Source of the DNA: a virus
Taxonomy: Duplodnaviria; Caudoviricetes
IMG/VR virus record: IMGVR_UViG_3300037478_000646
Coordinates: 1 to 64,000 of that record
Direction: 5' to 3' (one strand)
DNA length: 64,000 nucleotides
Position numbers and translations under genes: made by a program. The first letter of the stretch is position 1. The number at the start of each line of letters is the position of its first letter. The notes beneath the pieces were generated by a model. The model did no database searches and was not told the origin of the DNA. It saw only the letters and a program-made list of their open reading frames with translations. Of this stretch, positions 9,414-51,288 are shown piece after piece.

Positions 9414-9446
9414 TTGCAAAACACACAAGACGTGCTATACTATAAT
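9414..9446 (+). promoter_or_regulatory. Sigma70-type early promoter with overlapping inverted repeat
   Basis: TTGCAA-16 nt-TATACT with extended -10 TG, followed by TATAAT; GTCTTG/CAAGAC inverted repeat at 9411-9431 over the -35/spacer. Confidence 0.65.
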
Positions 9447-9539
9447 CATGAAAGGCTCTGGATAGGCGATCGCCGCGACACCCTTAAGCAATAAGCGAAA
9501 GCCTTCAAGGAATGATCTGAACCCCTTGGAGGACTGATA

Positions 9540-9839
9540 ATGACTAATGACCGTTGGCAAATTTGCCCAGCATGCAGCGGAGATGGACATTGCGTTAATC
9601 CAAACATCGACGCACATGGCCTTACCGCCGAAGATTTCGCAGAAGACCCCGACTTTGCCGAAGACTATTTCAGCGGCGCGTATGACCAGCCTTGCGCCGC
9701 ATGCAAGGGTAGCGGCAAGGTTCGCGAAAGCCATTTAAAGCGCTTGGACGAAGCGGCAGAAGATCGGCGCTTGGCTGCTCGCGAGAATGGCGACTTCGAT
9801 GCGTACTGCACGGCCTACGATTACCGATACGGCTACTAA
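9540..9839 (+). CDS. Small early protein with DnaJ-type CxxCxGxG zinc-finger pair
   Basis: CPACSGDG and CAACKGSG; GGAGG RBS. Confidence 0.7.
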   Translation: MTNDRWQICPACSGDGHCVNPNIDAHGLTAEDFAEDPDFAEDYFSGAYDQPCAACKGSGKVRESHLKRLDEAAEDRRLAARENGDFDAYCTAYDYRYGY

Positions 9840-9928
9840 CCCCTCTCGGGACGGCCTTTACTGGTCGTTCCTTGAAGGCTTTCGCTTATGCATCTCTCTT
9901 CAAGGGCAGATCGAACGGAGGATATCCC

Positions 9929-10066
9929 ATGCTCTCAGCAATCCTGATCAACTCACTCGGCTGCAAGCTTGACGAAGTGACCGGCGACGCAGCCGCAATC
10001 CAGAAACGAAACCTGTCATGGCTCGTGACGATCGAGATCGGCGACAAGATCGTATTCTGCGAATGA
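9929..10066 (+). CDS. Small early hypothetical protein (45 aa)
   Basis: GGAGG RBS then ATG at 9929. Confidence 0.55.
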   Translation: MLSAILINSLGCKLDEVTGDAAAIQKRNLSWLVTIEIGDKIVFCE

Positions 10067-10149
10067 CCCTCCTGGCCAGCCTTCGGGCTGTCCTTGAAGG
10101 GAGATGCAAGCGCTCCATCCAAGGGCAACTCGAAACGAGAGGAAAGACT

Positions 10150-10344
10150 ATGTTCAATCTCAAATTCAGCACTGACAATGCCGCATTCGGCGAGAACGAC
10201 GAAGAACGCACCGCCGAAATCGCACGCATTCTACAAGAAGTTTCGGACACGATGCGAGATAGATATGGCTTCTTATCCGGCATCATCCGCGACGAGAACG
10301 GCAATTCGATCGGCGAATGGTCAGTGACCGGGAACGACGACTAA
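10150..10344 (+). CDS. Small early hypothetical protein
   Basis: GAGG RBS; MFNLKFSTDNAAF...EIARIL...IRDENGNSIG, a typical phage early microprotein. Confidence 0.65.
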   Translation: MFNLKFSTDNAAFGENDEERTAEIARILQEVSDTMRDRYGFLSGIIRDENGNSIGEWSVTGNDD

Positions 10345-10429
10345 CCCTCTTGCGGCAGCCCCCGCGGGCTGCCCTTGAATGGAGCGCACCGAAAGCCTTC
10401 TGACGGACCATCCAACCAGGAGGAACGCG

Positions 10430-10666
10430 ATGAAGACGATCGCAAAAAACCGGCTGCACAAGTTCATTCCGCGAATTCGGAACATCAAGAGCTTCACGCT
10501 CGAGAACGGATTCAGGGGCGAAACGGTCGCTGATGAAAACGTAAAACGCTACCTCGACTTTGCCGTCAAGACCGACGCGAAGTTCAGATACAACCCCGAA
10601 ACACTCAAGGGCAGCGCGAAGCATCACAGCAATCACTGGTTCGATTTCGAACTGGCGCCGGAATAA
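10430..10666 (+). CDS. Small early hypothetical protein
   Basis: AGGAGG RBS then ATG. Confidence 0.6.
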   Translation: MKTIAKNRLHKFIPRIRNIKSFTLENGFRGETVADENVKRYLDFAVKTDAKFRYNPETLKGSAKHHSNHWFDFELAPE

Positions 10667-10749
10667 CCTGCTGGGCCATCCTTCGGGATGGTCCTTCAGA
10701 AGGCTTTCACACCGGACTCACAAGGGCAGACCCAACCAGGAGGACGAAT

Positions 10750-10827
10750 ATGTCGAACTTCAGCAAAATCGAAAAAACGTTGCCCGCATTCGTCGAAGCT
10801 CTCAACAAGGCGGACCGCCCTTCATGA
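10750..10827 (+). CDS. Microprotein (25 aa)
   Basis: AGGAGG RBS then MSNFSKIEKTLPAFVEALNKADRPS*. Confidence 0.4.
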   Translation: MSNFSKIEKTLPAFVEALNKADRPS

Positions 10828-10860
10828 ACGTGAATCAGTAGAGCAAAGGAGGAACTGACG

Positions 10861-11154: not shown

Positions 11155-11424
11155 ATGAAACCAGTTTTGATTACCACACAACATCGCGGCGTCTTTGCCG
11201 GCCTCGTTCCTGACGACCAAGACATGAGCGCAAAATGCATGCCCCTCAAACAAGCCAAAATGGCCATCCGCTGGGGCACGTCCAACGGCGTCATGGAACT
11301 AGCTCATTCCGGCCCGACACAGCACAGCAAAATTTCTCTACCTGCTGACATATCAATGCTCAACGATATCACTGCTATTTTCGATATCACCGAAGTCGCA
11401 TGGGCGAAATGGATGGAGGCTTAA
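11155..11424 (+). CDS. Phage protein, DUF6948-like
   Basis: VLITTQHRGVFAG...AKMAIRWGTSNGVMELAHSGP; a family typically adjacent to Gly-Tyr repeat genes (recalled, not searched). Confidence 0.55.
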   Translation: MKPVLITTQHRGVFAGLVPDDQDMSAKCMPLKQAKMAIRWGTSNGVMELAHSGPTQHSKISLPADISMLNDITAIFDITEVAWAKWMEA

Positions 11425-11428
11425 TCCG

Positions 11429-11980
11429 ATGGATGACCTCATAATCACCCGCGATGACCTCATTAAAGGCAATCTCTGTCTCGATGGCGTGAATGAGGTC
11501 ATCGACAGAATTTGGCCAATTGCAGCGGCGATGCCAATTAAAACCATTCTGCCGAAACTCGATAAAAACGAACAACATCGGCTTTTGATCGCAATAAAAG
11601 CCGATGGCTCTGGCTATGGCTCTGGCTATGGCTATGGCTCTGGCTATGGCGATGGCTATGGCTCTGGCTATGGCTATGGCGATGGCGATGGCTATGGCTA
11701 TGGCTATGGCTCTGGCTCTGGCTATGGCTCTGGCTCTGGCTATGGCTATGGCTCTGGCTCTGGCTATGGCTATGGCTCTGGCTCTGGCTATGGCTATGGC
11801 TCTGGCTATGGCTATGGCGATGGCTATGGCTCTGGCTATGGCTATGGCTATGGCTATGGCTCTGGCGATGGCTATGGCTATGGCTCTGGCTATGGCTATG
11901 GCGATGGCGATGGCTATGGCTATGGCTCTGGCTATGGCTATGGCGATGGCGATGGCTATGGCTCTGGCTATGGCGAATAA
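11429..11980 (+). CDS. Phage protein with C-terminal Gly-Tyr-Gly-Ser/Asp low-complexity tract
   Basis: ITRDDL...CLDG N-terminus, then about 120 aa of GY/GS/GD dipeptides. Confidence 0.7.
   Translation: MDDLIITRDDLIKGNLCLDGVNEVIDRIWPIAAAMPIKTILPKLDKNEQHRLLIAIKADGSGYGSGYGYGSGYGDGYGSGYGYGDGDGYGYGYGSGSGYGSGSGYGYGSGSGYGYGSGSGYGYGSGYGYGDGYGSGYGYGYGYGSGDGYGYGSGYGYGDGDGYGYGSGYGYGDGDGYGSGYGE
11603..11974 (+). repeat. Hexamer tandem repeat (GGCTAT/GGCTCT/GGCGAT)
   Basis: About 60 tandem 6-mers using only these three variants. Confidence 0.95.
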
Positions 11981-18006: not shown

Positions 18007-19098
18007 CTAAGAAAAATTCACAACCTCGCCATCCTCACATTCCACCACGAACCGGCTCTTGCTACCGGACTCAGCGCCGCCTCGGCTATCATATTTCCCC
18101 TCGAGAACCTTCTCGAGATTGCGGCCCCGAAACAGCCAGTCCAGATCCACCTGCCAATCACTCGTCTTTCCCGTCAGCCAGCTCGATCGCATGATCCGAT
18201 CAACAGCCTCCCGCCAGCCCTGCAGCCCGCCGCACTCCCTGATGCAAGTGGCAATGCCGCGCCGGCGAACAGATCCAGCCCGCCCCAGAGTCCGCGGAAC
18301 CTGCCGCAGGCCAGCTTCTTCGGCACGACTCCGGTAATAGGCGAACGCGGCATCCTGAACGCGCTTGTCCATATGCTCATTAGGAAGAGGAACATGCAAT
18401 TCGTTTTTCGAATTGTCAACATCGTCCGTTAACCTTTGTTCGTTTTTCGAATTATCCGTTAACCTTTGTTCGTTTTCCGAATTAGCGGCCCTATCCACAA
18501 GAGTCTTCCTTCGGCTGAGTGAAGTTCCTTCCTCACACACGCTTTGCGTGTGGGTCCGGTTTACCTCTTCAAATGATCTCTTCATAGTCTCTTCATAGTC
18601 TCTTCGGTCTGCCAAATTGGCGGACCCCCCCTCTGCCAAATTGGCGGACCCCCCTCTGCCAAATTGGCGGACCCCGGTCTCTGCCAAATTGGCGGACCCA
18701 TCATTTTGACCCTCTGCCAATTTGGCAGACCCATCACCCTCTGCCAATTTGGCAGACCCATCATTTTTTCTTTCCGGCCACAAAAGGACTATCTCTGCTG
18801 CTGCATCAAGAACCTTTGCCCTGAACATCATGGTCTTTCCGTCGCGATGCTCATAGGCGAAGAGCTCTCTGGCTGCAGGAAAATGCCGATCGAACGTGCG
18901 CATAGGCATCCGGCACATCAGCGCAAGACGTTCCCTTGACGGCCAAGCCGTCATCCTGCCCGGCTTCATATGTTCGATGATAGCGAGCGCGATCAGCTTG
19001 ACCGGAACTGGCACGTCCAGCGCCCATATCGTTCGCCGTAGATCGATATAGGATTGCGGGCCAGCAACCTCGTCAGGAAGGACTTTCTTCAGCATCAC
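18007..19098 (-). CDS. Phage replication initiator (N-terminal HTH, central repeats, C-terminal helical domain)
   Basis: AWPSRERLALMCRM HTH; GSA(K/N)LAEG repeats; W.VDLDWLF C-terminal motif. Confidence 0.8.
   Translation of the reverse strand: MMLKKVLPDEVAGPQSYIDLRRTIWALDVPVPVKLIALAIIEHMKPGRMTAWPSRERLALMCRMPMRTFDRHFPAARELFAYEHRDGKTMMFRAKVLDAAAEIVLLWPERKNDGSAKLAEGDGSAKLAEGQNDGSANLAETGVRQFGRGGSANLAEGGSANLADRRDYEETMKRSFEEVNRTHTQSVCEEGTSLSRRKTLVDRAANSENEQRLTDNSKNEQRLTDDVDNSKNELHVPLPNEHMDKRVQDAAFAYYRSRAEEAGLRQVPRTLGRAGSVRRRGIATCIRECGGLQGWREAVDRIMRSSWLTGKTSDWQVDLDWLFRGRNLEKVLEGKYDSRGGAESGSKSRFVVECEDGEVVNFS
18399..18482. repeat. Three AT-rich 15-bp palindromes RTTCG-N5-CGAAT within the initiator gene
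   Basis: 18399-18413, 18438-18452, 18468-18482. Confidence 0.8.
18608..18759. promoter_or_regulatory. Putative replication origin iterons (6 copies)
   Basis: TCTGCCAA(A/T)TTGGC(G/A)GACCC at 18608, 18632, 18655, 18680, 18713 and 18740, inside the initiator gene as for lambda O. Confidence 0.75.
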
Positions 19099-38229: not shown

Positions 38230-41200
38230 CTATAGAAGTTCAGGCACGTACAAATCGCTGAGCTCGGCATTCTCGCCGTCCTCAAGCAGGCGGCGCTTGA
38301 TCTCCGGCCAGTCCCGGCGCACGTCTTCATAGCTCGGCAGCTTGGCCTTGCGCATTCGCTCCATGAACATTTCGTGGATGACCGGCACGGCTGCTTCCAG
38401 CTCATCGAGAACCGGCTGTGTTTCGAGCGGCTTCTTCTGCGCCCAGCCTTCGACCTGTGCGGCGATCAGCGCGTTGCGCGCCTCGCGCATCTGGATGTTG
38501 GCCAGGATTTCCATCGCGGTGCGGCGCTCGCGCGGCCGGACCGTAATGCGCTCGTCATCCTCATCTTCGAGCCGGTTCAGATTAAGCGTCTTGCGCAGCT
38601 CGTTGGCGATCGAGACGACTTCCTCGGCGCGGATCAGCGGATGCAGATCGCGGTATTTGGCGTTGCGCCGTCCAGTCTGCGTTGCATGCAGGATGGCATA
38701 AGCCTTCTGATCATCGTCCAGCGATTTCAGATACTCGGACGCGGCCAGCGGATCGCGCGCCTTGTTAATATAGTATTTGTACCCGTTCGCCGCCGTCGCG
38801 AACTTGCCGGTGTTGCGCCCGATCAGTTCCCAGAAGTGACCGACCGATTGCGCACCGCGCGGCGCTTCCAGGCTGAACCGGCGTCCGATGATCGCATCGA
38901 AGACATCTTTCGTTGCCGTGCCGGGATCGATGTAATTGCCGGTCAGCGCGTCCGTGCCTTGCAGGAAAGCCCGCCCGTAGGACGCCCCGAATCCGGTGAT
39001 GAAATGATCGATATGAGCCGGCGAGACATTGATCTGCCGGCCGAGCATTTTCCCGAATTCGGAGGCATAGGCGTTGAACTGCAGATGCGGCGGCAGCGCG
39101 CGCAGATGATCCGCCACGATCTGGCGTTCGGTGAACGAGTCGTAATTGAACGCCAGTTCGATCGGCACTTTGATGCCCGGCACGTCAGTTGGCGGCAGGA
39201 CGATATGTTGCAATCCGTCAACGAACCGCTCCATTGCAAGCGGATCATCCTTCAACGTATATTCGAGCGTGCGTTCCATAAGATTCGAGAAGAACGCCAG
39301 TTCGAACGGCTTAGGAATGCGATACCATTCGCCATCGACCTTGAAGATCCAGTGCGTCGCGCGCATGTAGCTCGAAAATTCTTCATATTCCTCATCATCC
39401 TGATGCAACACCCAGATCGCCGCACCGATCAGGCCAACTGCAGCCACCTTGGCCCAGACCTTTGCCGCCAGCGGCAACTGGCGCCGCTCAGCAATGCTGA
39501 GCGGCTGGCCTCTCCGGCTCTTGATATAGGGCGAGATCGCATCGCGGATGATCCTGTCGTTGTTCACCTTACCGCGTAGGCCGCGAATGCCGCGGTCAAG
39601 CCCTTGCAGCGCGGCGTTGAAGAACGGAATGATCCGGCGCATGGCCAGCATCTTCGAACCGTGACGGCCGAAATCGATATAGTCCCGCGCCGCATAAGCT
39701 GCCTCGATCGCCGCTTCGTGCTTTGACAGACCGTCCCTTTGCGCGCGGTCATAGGCTTTCCTGAAAACGCCCAGGCGCGTGCCGGTTTCCGTGAATTCTG
39801 TTATGCGCAGGATGTTGGTGACCGGCGCATCGCGGAAATAGATGCCGCGGCGCTTGCGCAGATCGAGCACTTCCTGCTTGATGCGGGCATTGTGCAGCGT
39901 GGCCGTGTTGGCCCCGCCCATGATGCCGCCGACGCTCGAATAGATCCGGCCGATATCGCTGGCAGTCTTGTCATCATAGATACCGCGAATGCCGGACACG
40001 AACGGCGTGAACTCATCAGCAAGTATCCAGGCCGAAACCTGATCACGGATAAAGTTGGCAAAGATGAAATCCGGCGAGGCCGTGATCGCCGTGCGCAGGA
40101 TCGTAGCCGGCAGTGCCAGCATCGAGACATACCACGGCGTTATTTCCTGCCCGAGCGCCAGGATCGCATTCAGCATGTCCTTGCCGAACTGCTGATCCGC
40201 CAGCCGGATCGGAACGCGCTTGCCATCTTCCCACAGATAGACGATTGCCTCGCCCTTCTCGGAAACTTCGCCCGCGCGCCAGATCGTCGTGATCGCATCT
40301 TCGCCGATCAGCCCGTCAACCGCCTGCACCATGATCTGCAGATCGGCCGGGTCCACGCCGGCTTCCTTCGCCGCCAGTTGCAGCGCTTCCTGCACATTGA
40401 CGCGCGTGCCCTGCATTTCATGGGACGGAATCCGCTCGGCGAATGAGCCGCCATCCGGGCCGGCCGCCGTCGCCAGCGCATCGAGCGCCTTGATCGCATC
40501 GTTGCGCGCGATGATCATGGATGTGTCGTATGTGTCCTGCACGATGGATTCGAGCGGACTGATCACATCGCGCTGCGAGCCGCGGAACCGGCGCAATATG
40601 CCCTGCTTGTCTGGCCGGGCCGGAACGCCGCTGTGAACCTGGCCGAGATCGGCGCGGTCGCGCAGCACCGGCACGTAATCCGGCCGCCCGAGCAGCGTGT
40701 CGTAAATTTCCTGACTGATCAGCCCGGCCGCGAGCTTCTTGGCCAGCATGTTGTTCTGGAACTCGTACAGCATCTGCGCGGCCTGCTGGAACCCGGGATA
40801 GGCGCGTTCAAGCTCGGCGATATTCTGGAGATGCTCGGACTTCTTCACCTTGTCCGGCAGGGCGTCCAGCTCGCCATTAAAATACCGGTCCCATTCGCGC
40901 ACGAAGCGGCGCGAGGCCAGATAGCTGTCGAACCGGTCCTTGGCCTCGCTCTGCCATTGCGACCGGCTCTCGCCGCCGAACGCCGTCACCAGCGCTTCAT
41001 GGAAGGACGGCCCGGCCGGATCGAGTTCGTGATAGGGCCGCACGCCATGCTGCAGATCCATGTGGCCGGACGCATAGCCGTCGCGCGCGAGGCGCATCAG
41101 CTTGTACGGATCATTGACGGCCTTGATCGTCAGCCGGGCATCGTTCGGCAGATTGAGGTTCTTGCGCGCAACGGCCAGTAGGCCCTCGACCGTCTGCTTG

Positions 41201-44200
41201 ATCGGATGCAGATCGTCGATGGTCCATGTGTAGAGCCGTTCCACAAAGGCGTCGATCGTGTTCCAGACCTGATTGTCTTCGATGATGCGCCGGAACTTGG
41301 CCATCTGCCCGCCCGCCCGCGAAACGATATTGCTGACGATGACGCCCGCCGACGGAGCGGCAAGCCACTGCTGATAACCGGTCCGGATTTCGGTCAGCGT
41401 CTTCATCGTGCGCGGATCGTTCTGGCGCAGGAAAGCTTCGAACGCCTGCTCGAACCGTAGCGCCGTGCGCGTGCTTGCCGCCGGATTGGTGACATAGCGG
41501 CGGAACCATTCCGCAAAGCCCTCAGAGAGCGCGTCAGGGCCGGGAGAGGCCAGCGGCGTCAGCTCCGCAGCGTGCTGCTGCTTGATGGCGTCCAGCGCGC
41601 CCTTGTGCCGCCCTTCAAGCGCATGCCCGCCCTCATGGGCCAGCGTGTCGAGCTCGTTCAGGACGCGCAGCCGGATAACGCCGGAGACGGTGTTGTAATG
41701 CCCGCCAAGCCGCCGCCCGGCTGCCGCGGCCTGACGCTTCAGCGCCGAGCTTAACCGGCCCTGTCTGACCGTCAGGCCGAGACCGAGATTGAAGCGGCGC
41801 ACCATCGTTGCGAGACTTTGGCCGGGCCGGTCAAGGCCGGGCTGCGCCACGCGCGCCGGGCTGTCCGCCATCCGGCCCGCCGTTTCCAGCATCGGCTTGG
41901 TGACGTTCTCGATTTCTTCGACCAGCGCGCCGAACGGTCCGTCCCGGTCGCCGATCCTGCCGCTTGCCAGATCGGCGAAGACATCCTCGGCCGCGGCCCA
42001 GCCGCGCTGCATCAGCGCATTGCGGATGCGCTCATAGAACAGCCGGATGCGCTCGAACAGGCGCTCGACGATCGTGCCGGGCTGCTGCTGTTCGCCGCGC
42101 ATGTAGCGCTGGAACGCCATGGCGATGGCTTCCTCGATGATGTTCTCATCGGTGGCGGGCTTGCCGTACACGCGCTGATAGTCGCGGATCTCCGGCACGT
42201 CGAGCCAGCCCTGCGTTCTTGCCGCCGCCTTCAGCACATTCCACTCACCGGGCGTGAACAGGCCCATCGTGCGCAGCGCGTGCAGCGATTCATGATACGC
42301 TGTACCGATCGGGTCGAGCGCATTGCGAGCGATGACCATCAGGAGCTTTTCGCGGTCGAAATAGCCCTCGATGATAGGCTGGCGCTCATTCGGATCACGG
42401 CGGATCGTCAGCGGCTGGCCTTCGAGCAGCGAAGTGCGCATGGCGTCGGTGATGCGGAGGAAGGAATTGACTTCAAATGCTCCAGCATGCTTTTCGCGTT
42501 GAGCTTCAGCAACCATTTCGGCATGAAGACGATCTTGCTCATTCCGAAGACCTTCAAGACGCGTCATTGCATCATCAAAGCCAGCCTCGCGTCGAGCCAT
42601 CGGGCGAAGTTCCAATTCTTGCAGAGGTTCCATTTCGGCAAGCAAAGTATTCCACCGATCCAATAGTTCTTGGCTTGGTGTAGCTGGCCTCACCTGATCC
42701 TGTGAACGCTCCATAAGACGCACTTCTTCTACCCTCCCTCCCCATTTCTTCGTATATTTTTTCAGGAAGCTACCGATCTTCTGATCGTACTGGACGGAGA
42801 GAGCTTCGGCATCGCCGCCGACGGCCTTGGCAATCTGATCGCTCCGCGCCCATGATACGGCGTCATAGCCGTTTTCAGAGGCGTAGAGCAGAGCGCGCTT
42901 TAGAGCCAGTTCGAGCCACAGGTCGCCTTTGAAGGGGGCGTCGGGCATCGGTAGCAGACGAGTTTGGATCAGGTTATCACGAACCATCGTCCGACTCATG
43001 CCCCTTTCCAAGGTCGTAGCGGCGGCTTCAAGCGCTGGACGAGCGGCGATCACGTCTGCATCAGATGCATTCGTCTCTATGTGGTCGCGAATGCGCGCTG
43101 CAATATCTGTCGGAAGTTTAGCGCCTTCATCGGACTGGTCATAGATTTTCGTTGCGATTTCTACTACATTCTGACCTGATTTGGCATAGCCTTCTCTTCG
43201 CCCGCGCTGATGCCCGGTCGCCTGGATTTCATTGATAAAGAAAATCCGCTCGCCATTCGGGCCGATCCTGTCATCAGCCCTGAAATGCACGAGCACCGGC
43301 CCGCCGAAATGTGGCTCGCTGTATTCCCAGCCGGGCAGGAGGATTTTAAATTCGCGGTAGTTGGTTCCGCCGGGGACTTTGTAGCCGGAGAATTTCGTCG
43401 ACATTTCGTCGGCACCGGATCGCTTCGCATATGCGCCAGCAGCGAAATGTTCAGCCTGCGATAGGCTTTGCGCCGAATTAACTAAATTCCAATCACCATC
43501 ATAAACATCAAAGAAGGTAAAATCATCGCCAAGACCGTCTGGTGTCACGCCCTCAACAATATGATAGGTGTCTTCGGGAAAGCTGGCTTCCCATGCTCGC
43601 CCTGTCGGTATTGAAATTCCATCCGGAAGATTGCTTTCGATGCCGCTAATATCGCTGAGTTCGCGCATAGCCGGTGGCTGCGCAGACGCTTCGCCACCAA
43701 GAACCTTCTCATCCAGCACCACCTGATGCGCTCTCATGAACGCCAGCACTTCATTTTTCGTGAACCGGTCAAGCTGGATCTGATCCGATGCGAACCCGGC
43801 CTCGATGGCCACGGTCACATAATCGTTCTCATCGGCAAAATCGTAATCCTGCTCGACCTGTGCAACCGTGCTCAGGCTTTCATCAGCCAGATAAGTCTTG
43901 GCGGCGACGATCACGCGGTCTTCATAGGTTGGCTCTGTCAGCCATTCCCGCAGCCCCATCCAGTCCAGCTCGTCCTTGCGCACGCCGGGAGCCTTGGAGA
44001 TCATCGACCAGAATTGCTCGCCTGTGCCGCGCTCCTGCTTCAGCTGCTCGGCAGCGCGGATGGCTGGTGAATAGAAGCCGCGCAGGGAAAGCATCTGATT
44101 GATAGCACCCTGCCGTTCCTCGGCAGATACAGGCTCGCCGTTCTTTTTCGTGATCTTGACGAGGCTGTCGTCGAAAATTACGATGTTACGAGTGCCGTCT

Positions 44201-47200
44201 CCGGTGTCGCGTGAGCCTTGATCAAGGTAGCGTATGCCACTTATTCCTTGACTTTTCAGTAGTTTTGATACATCTTCTCTATTATCAAGATGACCCAGAA
44301 GTTCTCCGACATGGTCGAACTCACTTGCCCTCAATGCGGCACTAAGTTTTTCAGACACGCGTTCTATGTTGCTTTGCACACTCGCATGTTCTGCAGCGGC
44401 ATCTGCTATGGCAACTATCGCCGAAGCGGATCTTTCGATGCGAAGGGGTACAGAGTCACTTCCATCGACGGCAAAAAGGTCAAGGAACACAGACTCATCA
44501 TGGAGGCTGCCCTCGGGCGCAAGCTTCTTCCCAGCGAGAATGTCCACCACATCAACGGGAATAAGACCGACAACAGACTGTCTAATCTCAGGCTCATTGA
44601 GCACAGAGCGCATAGCCTTGACCATAATCCGACGCGATGGAGTATCGAGACCGCCGTATCCCTCCTTGCGGAAGGCTGGTCGCAACGCAAGGTCGCCAAG
44701 CGTCTCGGCGTCAGTCGCCAGTGCATGGTCCAATCTTTGAGAAGACGCGGCTTTTTGTAAAGCAGCCTTCACCTTCTCGCTCTGCTTCGATAGCGGCAAA
44801 TCCCAATCCAGCAACTGCTCTGGCTCAACGTCGATCTCGACTTCGTAGAGAGCGCCCTGTGTGCCGACATCGAATATCCCATCATCGATTGCGTCGATAA
44901 TCCGGTACGCATCGTTTATATCGGAATAGGGATTGTCAGCGCCTTGCTCGGCATATTGCGCCAGCCCTTGACGGGCGGCTTTCAGATCCGAGAGATTGCG
45001 GCCAACAATTTGCGTGATCGCATGATTTCTCGGCTGGAACGGATACCCGTTGATCGTCATCGTCTGCGCAGAAAGGTTGTCGCGATACGTCCCCGCAACC
45101 ATCTCATTCTCGGCAAAGTACAATCCGTGCCCGAATGCCTGCGCACCTTCGCCGGTCCCGATCCGGTCCATTGAGAACCGATCAAAATCATGCGGCGAGC
45201 CGTGAAAGCCGCGGATCGAGAGCATTGTCGGCACGCTGAAAAACCCGCGGCGGCGCGGCGACAGCGTTTCCATGAACGATGGCCCGCCGCCCGTATCAGG
45301 CAGCTCGATCCATTTATTGCGGCGGAAGAAGTCCGCAAACCGCTCCGTCTGGACGTTCTCGACATACAGCGCTTCCAGACCATCGGCGATGGCGATGTCC
45401 CGTGATGCTTCCAGCATTCTCCGGAACGCCCCGCGCCCGGTCTGCTCGACCTCGACAGATGCAATATCCAGCGTGTTGAGCATCACATTGCTATGCGGCG
45501 AGGGATGCACGGCGCGGCGCACATAGACGCGGAACCCTTCGCCGTTGATCCAGGCGTTGCGACGGCCGCTTTTCAGGAAGTCCGTCAGCTGTGTCTGCCA
45601 GTCGGCAAGCCCCTGCGGCGTCAGCGAAAGCTGTTCGCCGTTGATGCCGAGCCCGCCGAATATGGCGTCCTGAATGGACTTGTACCGCACATAGGATTCC
45701 GCCAGCACGGTTTCCTCATACAGCGCCGGATCGGCGTTGCGGATAGCCTGGAACGTCTGTTCGTCAAATGGGCGGACATCGTTCTGCAAATAGGCAACGC
45801 CATGTGATTCCATGTCGGATGCTATCCAGTCGGCCGTGTCGGCTTCGATCTTGCCGTCTTCGCCCAGGCGCAGGATCAGGCCCTGCATGCGCTCGATCAG
45901 CCGAAGCACGTCATCCATGGTGTAGGTCTTGCCGTCATAGGCGTCGATCAGCTTTTCCGGATCGAGCCGGACCGCATCATAGCCGGGCTTTGCGGCAACT
46001 TCCGGGTGCTGCTCGATGATGCCGTCGAGCAGTTTGATGACCGTCTCCGTTGCATCGGCCATCCTGACATAGCCGCGCGCCTGGCCTTCCAGATTACGCG
46101 GGCTGTCCGGTGCGCGGCGACGTAGATCAAGATGGGCTTCGGCTGCCTCGCGGAACTCCATGACCTTGGGAACCAGCGCGGACCGCAGAGCTTCTGCGCC
46201 ATATTCCTGAATTTTCTTGATGATGTCGGTTTCGGTGTATTCGAGCGACACATGCACATTGCTGCGATGTCCGGGAATATCAGAAATGCTCACGCCAAGG
46301 TAGCGCGTAACCGGCATGCTGCCCAAAGTTTGCACAGTCATGTCTGGCCAGTCTTTCATGCCGGCGCGCACGGCGCTGCGGATCACATCAAGATGCTTCG
46401 GCCGCAGTCCGACAACCTGCCGCGGGTCCCATTGCTGCGACCGGTCGATATCCTCCATTTCCGGCGGATAGGACTGCCGCCGAGCTTCGGGCGACAGGGT
46501 GCGCCATTTCTCGGCCAGCCGCGCCTCGGCTTCCCCGGCGATGCGCTCGTAAGCGTCCCGCTCAGTGTTCGTGACCGCAAATCCGGAGATGCCCTTGTCG
46601 ATGAAGTTTTTCTGCTCGGTCAGGGCGTCACGGATCTTTTCCAGTTCGCCAACGATGTTACTGCCCGGCCTGGCATTGGCGATCTGGTGATTGATCTCGA
46701 ACAGCGCCGCTTCGAGCCGGACCGTGTAAATTGCCTCGTTGCCGCCCGGCGCGAACCCTTCATAGTCCTGAATGAAATGCTGGATCTCGTGAACAAGCGT
46801 GTCGAACAGCGCATTGATGTCATCGGTGGCATTGACCTTGATGCCCATCCGCGAAGCCGACCCGCTCGGGCCGCCGAACTCGGCCTGCTGGATGCTGACC
46901 GGCAGATTTTCCATGAACGGATAGGCGGCAAAGAGTTGCGGCGCGCGCAGCAGCTCGCCCAGCGTGCCGTTGAACGAGTAATAGGATTCGGTCCCCTCGC
47001 CGAACACGGCGCGCACGGTCCTGTAGCGCAGCCCGTTCTTGCGGTTGCGGAGCAGGCCCTTCATGCGCTGCAATTCGGCTTCGCTCAGATTGGTTCTGCC
47101 GCCCTCGGCAAAGAATTCCTCCATGGCCGCGACCCGGCGCTCCGGATCGCCCCGGCCCTCCATCATGAAACGATGGAACAGGAACCCGAATTCCGTCTCG

Positions 47201-50200
47201 CTGCCCGGATCGTCCTGAAGCATTTTCAGGCGATACTGGTTGCTGTCGAGCGCGAACCGCCATTCGCCGTCAAAGCCGCGGAACCAGCCGGTCTGCTCCC
47301 ATACATTGACGGGATCAGCTCCCTGCTCGATCATGGCCTGCGCCTGATCAAGCGCGGTCGTATCGGCGATTGCCGCCTGCTTGCCGGCGAAGTTGAAAAC
47401 GATATTCGGATCGTTCGGATCGAAGGTGCCGCGGTTGCCGATGGCGGATTTGATCTGGGTGGGCTTGAACGCTCCATAAGTTACTTCTCCACCCTCGATC
47501 ATTTTGATGCCGTCAAAATCGAGAATGGAAAAGATCTCATCGATTGCGGCCGTACCGTCCTGCCCGAAACGCATTTCGGGCTCGTACCAGAAATCATGAC
47601 GGCCATAATGCGGTCCGCTTTCTTCACGGCGGCGCGCTTTATGGATAATATCGACCAGATCATTGATGCGCGCCATTTCGGCTTCAGGCATCACGCGGCC
47701 TTGCCCGGCTGCCTGCTCGACCATGGCGTCAACCATTTGCCTGACCGTCACCGTACGCGGCAATCCCATGTCGGCATCAAATGGGCGTTCGATCTTCATG
47801 TAAAGAGGGAGAATATTACCGCCGCCGTCCCTGTCATAATTGCGCATGGCGGCATAGTCGGCAGGCAGTTCGATCCCGGTGCTAGCCCATGTAATGCCCT
47901 GAAAAATCCTGATGTCTTCAGCCGTCCCATGATAGACGATCAGCGGCCGCCCATTCTCGTCAACCACCACGGAATCCCCGAACCAGCGCTTGAACGCTTC
48001 GGACTGCGTGATCGGCGTCACACCTTCGGCATTCAGCAGGATGTTCGGCGCGATCTGCGTCAGCGTAATCCGGTCCTGTATCTGCACCTGCACGCGCTTG
48101 CCGGCCTGTCCCAGAACCTGGGATGTCGCGCGCTGTATGGCATCGTCAAGCTCGTTGACGATCGTTTCGTCCGTCAGCGGCTCCTGCTCCTGCATGAAGG
48201 CTGATGACCGCCCGGCTGACGCCCGTGCGCGCGCCCAGCCGTCGTACAGGCTGCTGAACCTCTGCTGCACTGCCTGTGCGGCCCTGGCTCGCGAACGACG
48301 ATCCGCGGAGGGCAGGCCGCCCATGAAGTCCACCGCTACATTGATCGCTTCGCGAGCGGGCAGGCGCTGCAATTCGGCGACGATCTCACGGCTTTCCGCC
48401 AGCCATGCATTCATATCGCCATTACGATCGCCGCGATGGAACAGCGCATTCAGATTGTCGGCAATGATCTCGGCTTCCGGCGACAGGCTTTCCACCGGCT
48501 CGACAATTGTCTGCGGGGCGGGTGCGGCGGCTTGCTGCTGCGCGGCAACGATCTTGCTGGCGATCTGGTGCTTGTTGTCCCGCGACTTGACCTGCACGCC
48601 GCGCTCGCGCGCCAGATTGGCCAGGTCCGGCTTCTTCATGCGCATCAGCGAGCTGACGGTTTCCGTCTGTGCGGCTGGCGCTGCGGCAGCAGTCGGTGCG
48701 GCTGTACTGGCTTGCGACGCTGGCGCGGCAGTTGGCTGACTGACCGGCAGACGCCCACCGCGCAGCATGGCTTTGGCCTGTGCGATCTGCTCCGGCGATG
48801 CTTGTCCGAATTCTGTTGGCGCGATATAATCATCGCCATACCGGCTTTGCTCGAAAATCGACCTGGTCGAACCGTCCGGCTTGAAGCGCTCTTTGAAATC
48901 GTTGAGAATATTTTCCTTCGTACCGGCTGTCGAAATGCCGGTCTGGCGCGCGACTTCCTTCAATTCTGTCATGTTCAGCGCCGGCAGCGCATCATAGGCA
49001 ACGGGAAGCGTATTGCGGATCTGTGATGTCTGACGCGCCGGCCGGGCCGCTGCTTCACGCTTCTGCCGTTTCGGCATCGCCGCCAGCAGCTCATCCAGTC
49101 CGCCGATCAGATCCGGCGCCTGTTCGCTGACGATCTCGCGGAGCCGCGCTGTCTGTTCGTCGGTCAGGCCGCGTTTGGCCATCATGGATGCGACCTCGGC
49201 GATATTGTCGCCGCGCAGCGTCATTTCCTCGATGACGTCAAGCGTATCTTCGCCGGTCCGCACGCGTTCGATGATCTCGGCGCGATGATCGCGCGGCATG
49301 CGCAGATACAGATCGCGAAATCCCGTATCGCCATATTCCTGATCGGCCGCTTCGATGTCCGGCAGCACCATGATCTGCTCATCATGCGCCAGATTGGTTT
49401 CGTAAACGCGCTGATCCTCGGCTTCAAACGCAGCCGTGTCCTGTTCCTGCTGGTCCGCTGGCACGATCCGTTCGCCGGAGATCGCGCGCTGCACCAGATC
49501 GAAGACGTCTTCAGGCGTCGTCACAGCAGGCTGGTCCGGCCCGCTCTCTTCCAGATAGCCGGCTTCAACCAGCTGCTCGCGCATCTGATCGGCGCTCAGT
49601 CCTTTCTGATTGATCAGCCCCGGATAGCGATCGGCGTCCAGCCCGGCCAGTTCGCCGGATGGTTTCAAGCCGCCTTTGGATCGAACGAATTGGAGAACGT
49701 CCGCGCCGCGCTGCTTCCGGCTTTCGGCGTAGGTCGGAGCCTGCACGATCTCTTCCGGCGCGGCGGCTTGCTGATCCGCGCCCAGCCGCTCTTCCATGGC
49801 CGTCGTGCGGATTGGCTGCATCCGGAAGAACTCGGCGAATGGATCGAGATCTTCCTTGGTTTCCTGCACGACCTGATCGCGCGTGCGCGGGCGGGTAAAC
49901 TCCTGGCTGACGCCGCCGACCGTGCCGAACCCCGTGCCGCCGACCATGCCGGCCATGGCGGCTTCGCCGATCCGCTCGCGCTGCGCGACAATGCCGTCCT
50001 TGGCGTTGCGCATGATCTCGACGAAAGACTGCTCGCCCTGCGCCGCCGACGTGCTGGCGATAATGATCGTTTCTTGCAACGCTTCCGTAATGCCCTCACG
50101 GGTTGCGCCCTTGGCCATCTCGGCCCCGACGCGGCGGATCATGTATTTCGCCATCTCGCGCTTGGCGTTGCCGGTCAGCTTCTGCATGATCGAGACGGGG

Positions 50201-51288
50201 ACCAGCGCATCGAGCGCGCCGACCATCGAACCTGCGATGTAGGAATATTTTTCCAGCATCTTCGGATCGGTGACGCCGACGGCTTCCAGCTCGTTGCGCA
50301 CCTCGCCGATGCCCATGCTCATCGCGGCGAGCCCCGCGCCGGGAATGCCGCCGATCGCGCCGCCGGCAATGATGCCCGTCGTCGATCCGCCCGCCTCGCC
50401 AAGCTTGGCCCAGAAATAGTCCATGAAGTCGTTGAAGGATTCAACGTCGCCGAACTGGTTGACCCGCGGCGGCGCGACCTTGGCGCGTTCCAGCTCGGAC
50501 AGGTACTGGACGAATTCACCGATCCGGCCCAGCGTTTCGGATTCGCTGGTCTCGCCATACTGGCGCAGCGCGCCGCCAAGCATCGACGTCGCGCCCAGCG
50601 TGCCCTGTGTGAAGCCCTTCGAGATCTCGGTCAGCCCCTTGCTGCGCTCGGCGATCTGCTCCTTGTTCTGCGTCTTCTCGGCTTCGATGAACGCGCCCAG
50701 CTCCTGCGAATAGCCGTTCTGCACCTTCTGGCCGCGGGCATAGAGTTCACGGATCGTGTCATCTTCGCTGACGACGGTGATCGCGTCACGGCTGTCCTCA
50801 TCGGATTTCTGCTGTGCATCGCGCTGCTTCAGGCGCTCGAATAGCCCCTGAAACATCATGTCGCCGGTCAGGTCGTCGACAAGCGTTTTTGTGCGCGGCG
50901 CGGAACCCGAGCCGGCCGGCGCGGTTTCTGCATGCTGGTCGTACTGGTCGAAATAGTTCACGCCCTGCGATTCAAGCAGGTTTTCAGGCTGCTGCGGCGT
51001 GCGCGCGCTGATATCTTCTGGATAGGGCGTAAAGCTGCCGTCGCCCTGCGGATCGAGCGCCCATGGATAGTTCGGATCTTTCACGTCGCCGTCGCGGAAC
51101 CGCAGTTCGCCTGTCTGCATCTGCTTGCGATAGTCCAGATCGTCCGGATTTTCCGTCGGTCCCCAGTTCTCGAAGTTCTTGCGCAAATTTCGGCTCTTGT
51201 CGATCGGAGGCTGGATAATGCGACGGCGCTGTTCTTCCGGCGTCAGCTCGGGATCGTCTTCGATTTTCAGATTGGGGAATGTTGGCAT
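38230..51288 (-). CDS. Giant polyvalent ejection/internal virion protein (4352 aa)
   Basis: ART-like modules (VVDENGRPLIVYHGT; FHGSPHDFDRF...GTGEGAQAFGHGLYFAE); LPD23-like EQTGWFRGFDGEWRF; three HExxH motifs (HEIQH, HESLH, HEGGH); GNAT-like DIASVEV...GRGAF; LPD38-like C-terminus (FFNAALQG, RIPKPFE). Confidence 0.9.
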   Translation of the reverse strand: MPTFPNLKIEDDPELTPEEQRRRIIQPPIDKSRNLRKNFENWGPTENPDDLDYRKQMQTGELRFRDGDVKDPNYPWALDPQGDGSFTPYPEDISARTPQQPENLLESQGVNYFDQYDQHAETAPAGSGSAPRTKTLVDDLTGDMMFQGLFERLKQRDAQQKSDEDSRDAITVVSEDDTIRELYARGQKVQNGYSQELGAFIEAEKTQNKEQIAERSKGLTEISKGFTQGTLGATSMLGGALRQYGETSESETLGRIGEFVQYLSELERAKVAPPRVNQFGDVESFNDFMDYFWAKLGEAGGSTTGIIAGGAIGGIPGAGLAAMSMGIGEVRNELEAVGVTDPKMLEKYSYIAGSMVGALDALVPVSIMQKLTGNAKREMAKYMIRRVGAEMAKGATREGITEALQETIIIASTSAAQGEQSFVEIMRNAKDGIVAQRERIGEAAMAGMVGGTGFGTVGGVSQEFTRPRTRDQVVQETKEDLDPFAEFFRMQPIRTTAMEERLGADQQAAAPEEIVQAPTYAESRKQRGADVLQFVRSKGGLKPSGELAGLDADRYPGLINQKGLSADQMREQLVEAGYLEESGPDQPAVTTPEDVFDLVQRAISGERIVPADQQEQDTAAFEAEDQRVYETNLAHDEQIMVLPDIEAADQEYGDTGFRDLYLRMPRDHRAEIIERVRTGEDTLDVIEEMTLRGDNIAEVASMMAKRGLTDEQTARLREIVSEQAPDLIGGLDELLAAMPKRQKREAAARPARQTSQIRNTLPVAYDALPALNMTELKEVARQTGISTAGTKENILNDFKERFKPDGSTRSIFEQSRYGDDYIAPTEFGQASPEQIAQAKAMLRGGRLPVSQPTAAPASQASTAAPTAAAAPAAQTETVSSLMRMKKPDLANLARERGVQVKSRDNKHQIASKIVAAQQQAAAPAPQTIVEPVESLSPEAEIIADNLNALFHRGDRNGDMNAWLAESREIVAELQRLPAREAINVAVDFMGGLPSADRRSRARAAQAVQQRFSSLYDGWARARASAGRSSAFMQEQEPLTDETIVNELDDAIQRATSQVLGQAGKRVQVQIQDRITLTQIAPNILLNAEGVTPITQSEAFKRWFGDSVVVDENGRPLIVYHGTAEDIRIFQGITWASTGIELPADYAAMRNYDRDGGGNILPLYMKIERPFDADMGLPRTVTVRQMVDAMVEQAAGQGRVMPEAEMARINDLVDIIHKARRREESGPHYGRHDFWYEPEMRFGQDGTAAIDEIFSILDFDGIKMIEGGEVTYGAFKPTQIKSAIGNRGTFDPNDPNIVFNFAGKQAAIADTTALDQAQAMIEQGADPVNVWEQTGWFRGFDGEWRFALDSNQYRLKMLQDDPGSETEFGFLFHRFMMEGRGDPERRVAAMEEFFAEGGRTNLSEAELQRMKGLLRNRKNGLRYRTVRAVFGEGTESYYSFNGTLGELLRAPQLFAAYPFMENLPVSIQQAEFGGPSGSASRMGIKVNATDDINALFDTLVHEIQHFIQDYEGFAPGGNEAIYTVRLEAALFEINHQIANARPGSNIVGELEKIRDALTEQKNFIDKGISGFAVTNTERDAYERIAGEAEARLAEKWRTLSPEARRQSYPPEMEDIDRSQQWDPRQVVGLRPKHLDVIRSAVRAGMKDWPDMTVQTLGSMPVTRYLGVSISDIPGHRSNVHVSLEYTETDIIKKIQEYGAEALRSALVPKVMEFREAAEAHLDLRRRAPDSPRNLEGQARGYVRMADATETVIKLLDGIIEQHPEVAAKPGYDAVRLDPEKLIDAYDGKTYTMDDVLRLIERMQGLILRLGEDGKIEADTADWIASDMESHGVAYLQNDVRPFDEQTFQAIRNADPALYEETVLAESYVRYKSIQDAIFGGLGINGEQLSLTPQGLADWQTQLTDFLKSGRRNAWINGEGFRVYVRRAVHPSPHSNVMLNTLDIASVEVEQTGRGAFRRMLEASRDIAIADGLEALYVENVQTERFADFFRRNKWIELPDTGGGPSFMETLSPRRRGFFSVPTMLSIRGFHGSPHDFDRFSMDRIGTGEGAQAFGHGLYFAENEMVAGTYRDNLSAQTMTINGYPFQPRNHAITQIVGRNLSDLKAARQGLAQYAEQGADNPYSDINDAYRIIDAIDDGIFDVGTQGALYEVEIDVEPEQLLDWDLPLSKQSEKVKAALQKAASSQRLDHALATDAETLGDLALRPAFRKEGYGGLDTPSRRIMVKAMRSVLNEPEIRQSVVGLIPVDVVDILAGKKLAPEGSLHDESVFLDLFAVDGSDSVPLRIERSASAIVAIADAAAEHASVQSNIERVSEKLSAALRASEFDHVGELLGHLDNREDVSKLLKSQGISGIRYLDQGSRDTGDGTRNIVIFDDSLVKITKKNGEPVSAEERQGAINQMLSLRGFYSPAIRAAEQLKQERGTGEQFWSMISKAPGVRKDELDWMGLREWLTEPTYEDRVIVAAKTYLADESLSTVAQVEQDYDFADENDYVTVAIEAGFASDQIQLDRFTKNEVLAFMRAHQVVLDEKVLGGEASAQPPAMRELSDISGIESNLPDGISIPTGRAWEASFPEDTYHIVEGVTPDGLGDDFTFFDVYDGDWNLVNSAQSLSQAEHFAAGAYAKRSGADEMSTKFSGYKVPGGTNYREFKILLPGWEYSEPHFGGPVLVHFRADDRIGPNGERIFFINEIQATGHQRGRREGYAKSGQNVVEIATKIYDQSDEGAKLPTDIAARIRDHIETNASDADVIAARPALEAAATTLERGMSRTMVRDNLIQTRLLPMPDAPFKGDLWLELALKRALLYASENGYDAVSWARSDQIAKAVGGDAEALSVQYDQKIGSFLKKYTKKWGGRVEEVRLMERSQDQVRPATPSQELLDRWNTLLAEMEPLQELELRPMARREAGFDDAMTRLEGLRNEQDRLHAEMVAEAQREKHAGAFEVNSFLRITDAMRTSLLEGQPLTIRRDPNERQPIIEGYFDREKLLMVIARNALDPIGTAYHESLHALRTMGLFTPGEWNVLKAAARTQGWLDVPEIRDYQRVYGKPATDENIIEEAIAMAFQRYMRGEQQQPGTIVERLFERIRLFYERIRNALMQRGWAAAEDVFADLASGRIGDRDGPFGALVEEIENVTKPMLETAGRMADSPARVAQPGLDRPGQSLATMVRRFNLGLGLTVRQGRLSSALKRQAAAAGRRLGGHYNTVSGVIRLRVLNELDTLAHEGGHALEGRHKGALDAIKQQHAAELTPLASPGPDALSEGFAEWFRRYVTNPAASTRTALRFEQAFEAFLRQNDPRTMKTLTEIRTGYQQWLAAPSAGVIVSNIVSRAGGQMAKFRRIIEDNQVWNTIDAFVERLYTWTIDDLHPIKQTVEGLLAVARKNLNLPNDARLTIKAVNDPYKLMRLARDGYASGHMDLQHGVRPYHELDPAGPSFHEALVTAFGGESRSQWQSEAKDRFDSYLASRRFVREWDRYFNGELDALPDKVKKSEHLQNIAELERAYPGFQQAAQMLYEFQNNMLAKKLAAGLISQEIYDTLLGRPDYVPVLRDRADLGQVHSGVPARPDKQGILRRFRGSQRDVISPLESIVQDTYDTSMIIARNDAIKALDALATAAGPDGGSFAERIPSHEMQGTRVNVQEALQLAAKEAGVDPADLQIMVQAVDGLIGEDAITTIWRAGEVSEKGEAIVYLWEDGKRVPIRLADQQFGKDMLNAILALGQEITPWYVSMLALPATILRTAITASPDFIFANFIRDQVSAWILADEFTPFVSGIRGIYDDKTASDIGRIYSSVGGIMGGANTATLHNARIKQEVLDLRKRRGIYFRDAPVTNILRITEFTETGTRLGVFRKAYDRAQRDGLSKHEAAIEAAYAARDYIDFGRHGSKMLAMRRIIPFFNAALQGLDRGIRGLRGKVNNDRIIRDAISPYIKSRRGQPLSIAERRQLPLAAKVWAKVAAVGLIGAAIWVLHQDDEEYEEFSSYMRATHWIFKVDGEWYRIPKPFELAFFSNLMERTLEYTLKDDPLAMERFVDGLQHIVLPPTDVPGIKVPIELAFNYDSFTERQIVADHLRALPPHLQFNAYASEFGKMLGRQINVSPAHIDHFITGFGASYGRAFLQGTDALTGNYIDPGTATKDVFDAIIGRRFSLEAPRGAQSVGHFWELIGRNTGKFATAANGYKYYINKARDPLAASEYLKSLDDDQKAYAILHATQTGRRNAKYRDLHPLIRAEEVVSIANELRKTLNLNRLEDEDDERITVRPRERRTAMEILANIQMREARNALIAAQVEGWAQKKPLETQPVLDELEAAVPVIHEMFMERMRKAKLPSYEDVRRDWPEIKRRLLEDGENAELSDLYVPELL
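44290..44760 (+). CDS. HNH homing endonuclease nested antisense in the giant gene
   Basis: CPQCG...[45 protein letters not shown], C-terminal HTH [15 protein letters not shown]. Confidence 0.85.
   Translation: [156 protein letters not shown]

Follow-up and report, generated by a model that had tools for sequence, protein, structure and literature searches.

Why should four short genes at the head of a phage operon each lie between the two arms of its own long inverted repeat, one repeat ending almost where the next begins? The window studied here, meaning the whole 64,000-nucleotide stretch, comprises bases 1-64000 of an 82,905-bp IMG/VR virus record with direct terminal repeats, and the four genes occupy the beginning of a rightward operon within it. 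A sigma-70-type early promoter with an extended -10 element (9414-9441, plus strand) was the sole promoter-like plus-strand site ahead of the array, and no plus-strand terminator-like site was found from this promoter up to 12400; with a single promoter and no such terminator found, the array appears to be one transcription unit. Divergent from the promoter lies an RHH regulator gene (9151-9354, minus strand), and downstream of the array follow, in order, a 67-aa ORF, a DUF6948 gene (11155-11424), and the gene for a GYGS-repeat protein. This last gene (11429-11980, right behind the DUF6948 gene) encodes 183 aa, mostly Gly-Tyr-Gly-Ser/Asp repeats (a 12- and 18-nt tandem repeat in the DNA), and the same gene pair was seen again in contigs L016, L019, L021, and L072.

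The uncultured phage looks podovirus-like, judging from a 4352-aa putative virion protein and the tail genes, and its replication genes include those for a primase/helicase and an O-like initiator. The 4352-aa ORF (38230-51288, minus strand) matched a number of large phage protein families whose function is unknown and contained a weak endonuclease VII-like stretch; a multidomain virion protein is its probable product. A cluster at 18606-18758, with five or more copies of a 17- to 19-nt palindromic word, adjoins a minus-strand gene (18007-19098) that matched replication initiator O-like and DnaD-like families, and this cluster looks like an iteron-type origin. Beyond the RHH gene, a 230-aa protein (8459-9151, minus strand) matched a PHROG annotated "ferredoxin" in the moron and host-takeover category, in place of which the close relative L072 has a 67-aa ORF. 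The search for relatives in IMG/VR found none for the neighboring 230-aa, helicase, and ORF 3 proteins.

All four inverted-repeat pairs that an earlier note on this DNA had described were recovered on the plus strand, some of them extending further than first reported. Pair 1 (9491-9517 and 9863-9889) has 27 positions, of which 25 are Watson-Crick and 2 are G-U; pair 2 (9889-9915 and 10082-10108) has 27 positions, with 23 Watson-Crick pairs, 3 G-U pairs, and 1 mismatch; pair 3 (10110-10132 and 10365-10387) has 23 positions, with 20 Watson-Crick pairs, 1 G-U, and 2 A-C; and pair 4 (10391-10413 and 10686-10708) is Watson-Crick at 22/23. Successive units overlap by 1 nt at 9889 and are otherwise separated by 1 nt at 10109 and by 3 nt at 10388-10390. 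The whole 82,905-bp genome was scanned for ungapped helices with a span of 60 to 1500 nt; ungapped helix scores were used in place of RNAduplex energies, which gave no discrimination when computed over whole intergenic regions. The four pairs scored 26, 22.5, 20, and 16.5, and three of them were the best long-range helices of the genome when the GYGS tandem repeat was left out. The best unrelated helix outside that repeat, located in the iteron cluster, scored 18.5, so the third pair, with 16.5, was not exceptional by score alone and stood out by its position. Furthermore, in a matrix of the best helices between the intergenic regions of the window, cognate neighbors scored 16.5-26 and all noncognate combinations scored 5-13. 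The minimum-free-energy fold of 9440-10760 contained all four stems, in line with the earlier proposal that the stems loop out each gene; the predicted helices have 27, 27, 23, and 23 positions. For a 508-nt piece, the folding z-score was -4.2 for the sense strand and -2.7 for the antisense strand. No Rfam family matched the frames or leaders described below, and neither the array nor one intergenic element had a match when searched as nucleotide sequence against the INPHARED phage collection.

The units share a common anatomy. Unit 1 begins with a 5' element (9491-9539) made up of the left arm and a ribosome-binding site, continues with ORF 1 (9540-9839; 99 aa, with two CxxCxGxG-like motifs), and ends with a 3' element (9840-9889) that contains a C-rich word after the stop codon, a local hairpin, and the right arm; the two elements together are referred to as frame 1. 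Unit 2 (9889-10108) holds a 45-aa ORF (9929-10066) followed by a hairpin with a UUCG loop, unit 3 (10110-10387) holds a 64-aa ORF (10150-10344) followed by a GC hairpin, and unit 4 (10391-10708) holds a 78-aa ORF (10430-10666) followed by another UUCG-loop hairpin, each between its left and right arms and all on the plus strand. A strong ribosome-binding site comes right after each left arm, whose end lies 13-22 nt from the start codon, and the right arm starts 15-23 nt beyond the stop codon, with the C-rich word and then the local GC hairpin in between. The shared core of the arms, the C-rich word past the stop codons, and the GC hairpin that overlaps the right arm of every unit had all been noticed earlier and were all present. 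The core common to the arms is a 9-mer that is palindromic except for its central base and occurs in 3 exact copies against 0.5 expected; in addition, arms 1 and 4 have a 10-nt word in common. A CCUC-type C-rich word followed the stop codon in about 11/18 units read (a hand count), and in the minimum-free-energy folds of units 1 and 4 this word pairs with the ribosome-binding site.

In 13/14 nonredundant units from six contigs, the 3' strand of the local hairpin doubles as the inner segment of the right arm. The local hairpin can form alongside the outer 14-19 bp of the long helix but excludes its inner 5-9 bp, and since these inner pairs compete with the hairpin, each unit has two mutually exclusive conformations. 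The local hairpin had a UUCG loop closed by C-G in 7/14 cases.

As to the ORFs themselves, the motifs of ORF 1 are of the DnaJ zinc-finger type but fall under the Pfam cutoff. Homologs of ORF 1 with 43-61% identity were found in seven IMG/VR contigs in which the frame was absent, and the ORF of unit 4 likewise has homologs elsewhere without the frame. The ORF 1 and ORF 4 homologs in other phages (L006-L014) were considered as framed units and rejected, as the frames were absent; a flanking repeat seen in the AT-rich contig L014 is probably due to chance. Just beyond unit 4, an orphan left-arm-like element (10713-10828, plus strand; direct repeat family D3) carries a ribosome-binding site and a 25-aa ORF, had no right partner in the helix matrix, and is possibly the scar of a deleted unit.

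The main new result, obtained by sequence comparison, is that frame 1 is reused around unrelated ORFs in other phage contigs. A pattern search found it in L073, L078 (= L084), L081, L082, L083, L085, and L092/L093, and it is also present in L072. It was 82-100% identical to the copy in the window, with most comparisons at 90% or above, in seven other metagenomic phage contigs, six of which could be read across both arms. With the ORF of the window included, frame 1 encloses seven unrelated ORFs, among which no mutual similarity was found by BLASTP, and a partial eighth contig (L073) shows the 3' end of a further distinct ORF. The 5' element was 90-96% identical to that of the window in the six other contigs carrying it, and its alignment is invariant as far as the ribosome-binding site, after which there is no similarity; the 3' element was 98-100% identical in seven other contigs, and its alignment is invariant from 0-8 nt past the stop codon, with no similarity ahead. 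Between the frame-1 contigs, similarity was mostly limited to short noncoding islands, and the frames were far better conserved than the ORFs that they enclose. Additional pattern matches in four bacterial MAG contigs, six metagenome contigs, and two viral contigs lie in coding-like sequence without frame context and were therefore taken as chance.

A close relative among these, L072, is a 15.9-kb JGI contig whose flanking genes have 85-96% nucleotide identity to the window. Its early operon starts with a promoter followed by unit-2-type arms around an unrelated 99-aa ORF; its second unit has arms 95-100% identical to those of unit 1 of the window, around an unrelated 52-aa ORF; and a third framed ORF, a homolog of the window's 67-aa ORF, and DUF6948 follow. 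Arms of the unit-2 type also enclose other ORFs in L081-L084. The order of frames is 1-2-3-4 in the window versus 2-type and then 1 in five other contigs, and additional frame types come after these in L072 and L092/L093.

Part of the earlier suggestion of a shufflable cassette array holds up, namely, that relatives differ cassette by cassette. The breakpoints, however, fall inside the arms, on one side at the ribosome-binding site and on the other directly past the stop codon, and the same arms hold different ORFs, so the arms are not the ends of a mobile unit of arms plus ORF. The sharp conservation boundaries imply that the exchanged unit is the ORF within the frame and that the frames stay in place. 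To judge from these alignments, then, cassette-like shuffling is real, and the unit swapped is the ORF inside its frame, not arms plus ORF.

A more distant relative, the 88-kb Logan contig L021/L071, has the gene order of the window. The proteins that the two have in common are 26-73% identical, with the DUF6948 protein highest at 73%. Between its RHH-like gene and its DUF6948 gene is an array of five or six units, one of them nested within another, with ORFs that are all unrelated to the ORFs in the window's array. Cognate helices of the four main units scored 20.5-24, against 14.5 or less for noncognate combinations, and the predicted helices had 22-30 positions. The core differs from that of the window in that it is not palindromic and carries conserved mismatches. 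A TnpB/IS605-type gene (L021 2183-3428 = L071 11802-13047, minus strand) lies inside this array, 3 nt after a right arm, and is adjoined by a 26-nt inverted repeat. Elsewhere in the array, a 13-nt direct repeat (L021 321-333 and 887-899) flanks one framed unit without being adjacent to its right arm and may have been left by the duplication or insertion of a unit. No comparable array was found in 47 other phage loci with a DUF6948 gene, covering about 430 kb.

Whether the arms pair as RNA or as DNA was approached through the pattern of non-Watson-Crick pairs, with G-U and A-C scored alike so that neither was favored. On the coding strand of 15 units, there were 317 Watson-Crick, 25 G-U, 6 A-C, and 12 other combinations (binomial p about 0.0009); the earlier remark that the G-U pattern favors single-strand pairing was thus borne out, with the sense strand favored. 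Removal of shared ancestry leaves a modest G-U excess, about 19 G-U to 6 A-C by hand count (p estimated near 0.015). At least 14 units in several contigs keep their pairing although their outer sequences differ. When the orthologous unit-2 arms of the window and L072 were aligned by hand, the two outermost pairs were swapped, C-G to G-C and G-C to C-G, which is, on this alignment, a double compensatory change; furthermore, variants of the unit-2 type differ jointly in inner arm and hairpin, so that their local hairpins show compensatory changes. In L081-L084 (L081, about 3466-3546; L082, about 9051-9129; L083, about 2978-3056; L084, about 7958-8039), a leader of about 85 nt is almost invariant from about the transcription start, while the promoter hexamer region varies. 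The loop of its hairpin contains a word that agrees at 10/13 positions with what we take to be the Escherichia coli rrn boxA, and this word may be an antitermination signal. UUCG tetraloops are unusually stable in RNA. Because of the G-U excess, the UUCG loops, the compensatory hairpin changes, and a leader whose conservation sets in at about the transcription start, the most likely site of pairing is the early mRNA, on the sense strand, and not duplex DNA. Two observations temper this reading: on paper, DNA hairpins can be drawn from the inverted repeats just as well, which counts against RNA, and the near-100% identity of frames across otherwise unrelated contigs exceeds what a stem needs and could reflect a sequence-specific protein or recent transfer.

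The explanation that we favor, and consider probable on the sequence evidence, is that the arms are parts of standardized 5' and 3' untranslated region (UTR) frames, the 5' and 3' parts base-pairing within the early polycistronic mRNA. A transcript begun at the 9414-9441 promoter would cross the whole array, and as the arms form predicted helices of 23-27 bp and the four units abut, the transcript would fold as a string of ORF-containing loops. The full helix would be a substrate of RNase III size, and its cleavage would yield monocistronic mRNAs with both ends still paired and protected. In the short form, with the local hairpin made, the ribosome-binding region would be left free. A terminating ribosome would cover the 5' strand of the hairpin and free the 3' strand to lengthen the long helix, and the competing local hairpin accordingly suggests a two-state switch. 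The frames would insulate the expression of whichever ORF they hold, and their near-identical flanks of about 45-50 nt could act as homology arms for the exchange of ORFs between coinfecting phages; no single-strand annealing recombinase was recognized among the 20 ORFs scanned. Cleavage of the helices by RNase III is plausible from their predicted size of 23-27 bp, although that RNase III in particular is the enzyme involved we would put at somewhat below an even chance; no phage-encoded RNase III or double-stranded RNA-binding domain (dsRBD) was found. The circularized RNAs proposed in the earlier note gained no support, the phage being without RtcB or RNA ligase. The complete scheme, a plug-and-play expression system in which a few standard self-pairing frames combine a translation-dependent helix/hairpin switch, RNase III processing, and flanks that act as recombination arms across otherwise unrelated phages, is offered tentatively, as a possibility to which we give rather less than half of our confidence.

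A DNA-level origin of the arms would account for other features of the locus. If the arms were recombination ends, either of a mobile cassette of the integron or transposon type or of a segment that a site-specific recombinase, for instance that at 31211, can invert, the units would be expected to abut in cassette fashion and array content to be wholly different between relatives, both of which were seen; a circle cut at the center of a palindromic site would give arm-ORF-arm, and the G-U bias could suit hairpins in single-stranded DNA too. We nevertheless regard this origin as quite improbable. Arms and ORF do not travel together, the junctions are without a common crossover sequence, core spacing varies, target-site duplications are absent, and there are no flanking direct repeats at the abutting units. 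All units in the eight contigs are co-oriented with transcription, no inverted copy was found among these contigs (a small sample, in which one comparison was single-strand), and minus-strand matches to the window were arm to arm only. The sole tyrosine recombinase, a 200-aa protein that consists of the catalytic domain and whose gene starts at 31211, is 21 kb from the array with nothing linking the two, which leaves the role once suggested for it without support, and the stability of UUCG tetraloops in RNA argues against a DNA hairpin. The likeness to integrons lies in an array of small co-oriented ORFs, each with an imperfect inverted repeat whose structure is conserved beyond its sequence. 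An integron attC site, however, is a local hairpin downstream of an ORF that moves with the ORF, needs the IntI integrase, and has RYYYAAC/GTTRRRY cores. Such cores were not found at the unit junctions, and neither an IntI-type integrase nor attI was found beside the array, where the neighbors are the RHH gene and the promoter.

The inverted symmetry might also be a functionless by-product, the frames being mere conserved recombination linkers or duplicated intergenic modules. Replacement of ORFs between conserved flanks is what linker-mediated modular exchange predicts, as with the promoter-early stem-loop (PeSL) modules of T4-type phages (PMC2839356), and the 10-nt word common to arms 1 and 4 suggests duplication. 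A linker needs no complementarity across a gene, yet this complementarity is kept in at least 14 units of different sequence; moreover, the compensatory changes and the strand-specific G-U bias would go unexplained, and the relation of the inner arm to the 5' and 3' strands of the hairpin recurs in 13/14 units, all of which makes a by-product unlikely. Least probable in our estimation, at only a slight chance, is that the near-palindromic 9-mer core serves a DNA-binding regulator, such as the divergent RHH protein, as an operator that recurs in all the intergenic regions in the manner of mycobacteriophage stoperators, although the core is enriched and palindromic save for its central base and the RHH gene adjoins the array. 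An operator would leave the unit-specific outer and inner complementarity unexplained, and L071 keeps the architecture with its nonpalindromic core.

Read as self-pairing UTR frames, the array approaches several known kinds of element: the gene-enclosing stems of pre-rRNA, 5'-3' UTR pairing of the icaR type, and modular shuffling of the PeSL type. In bacterial rRNA operons, the 16S and 23S rRNAs are looped out by long-range helices that RNase III cuts. The phage helices likewise are formed from both sides of a product, lie adjacent in one transcript, and are predicted to be of RNase III size, having the roughly two-turn length (at least 20 bp) of stems that flank a product; unlike in rRNA operons, the loops are protein-coding ORFs with their own ribosome-binding sites, and each helix has a local hairpin as a competitor. 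The RNase III sites of the T7 early region, too, lie as structured elements between cistrons in the early polycistronic mRNA of a phage, where they are expected to separate and stabilize messages, but they are local intergenic hairpins, whereas the helices described here span a gene. In the icaR mRNA of Staphylococcus aureus, initiation is blocked, and a substrate for RNase III formed, by pairing of the 5' and 3' UTRs that includes an anti-Shine-Dalgarno word (PMC3868564). The phage units resemble it in having a C-rich candidate anti-Shine-Dalgarno word 3' of the coding region, and the helix matrix, the covariation, and the G-U bias all indicate, at the level of sequence, that the 3' UTR of each message pairs with its own 5' UTR. 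The icaR case, by contrast, concerns one cellular gene, whose 3' UTR is long, while the phage has a tandem array of short standard frames that are common to several genomes and whose main helix lies upstream of the ribosome-binding site. The PeSL cassettes of T4-type phages are conserved noncoding modules around variable early ORFs (PMC2839356, PMC4122927); there, as here, short modules flank small early ORFs and close relatives differ by ORF replacement, but PeSLs are direct repeats, each with a promoter and a terminator hairpin, whereas the phage frames have no promoter of their own and each gene has 5' and 3' modules complementary to one another.

What such frames would mean for the phage follows from the nature of the genes involved. 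Phage early accessory genes serve host-takeover and counterdefense functions and turn over very fast. A conserved RNA frame that standardizes expression and at the same time marks the points of exchange would explain how they can be replaced ORF by ORF without breaking the operon. Very few examples of 5'-3' UTR communication in bacterial-type mRNAs are known to us, and the array provides a concrete, testable case. The frames would also be a natural counterpart to the engineered RNA insulators of synthetic biology. They look like standard "sockets" for the expression and exchange of accessory genes, and if this is true, the same sockets could take up any small accessory gene, or trade it, across phage genomes that are otherwise unrelated.
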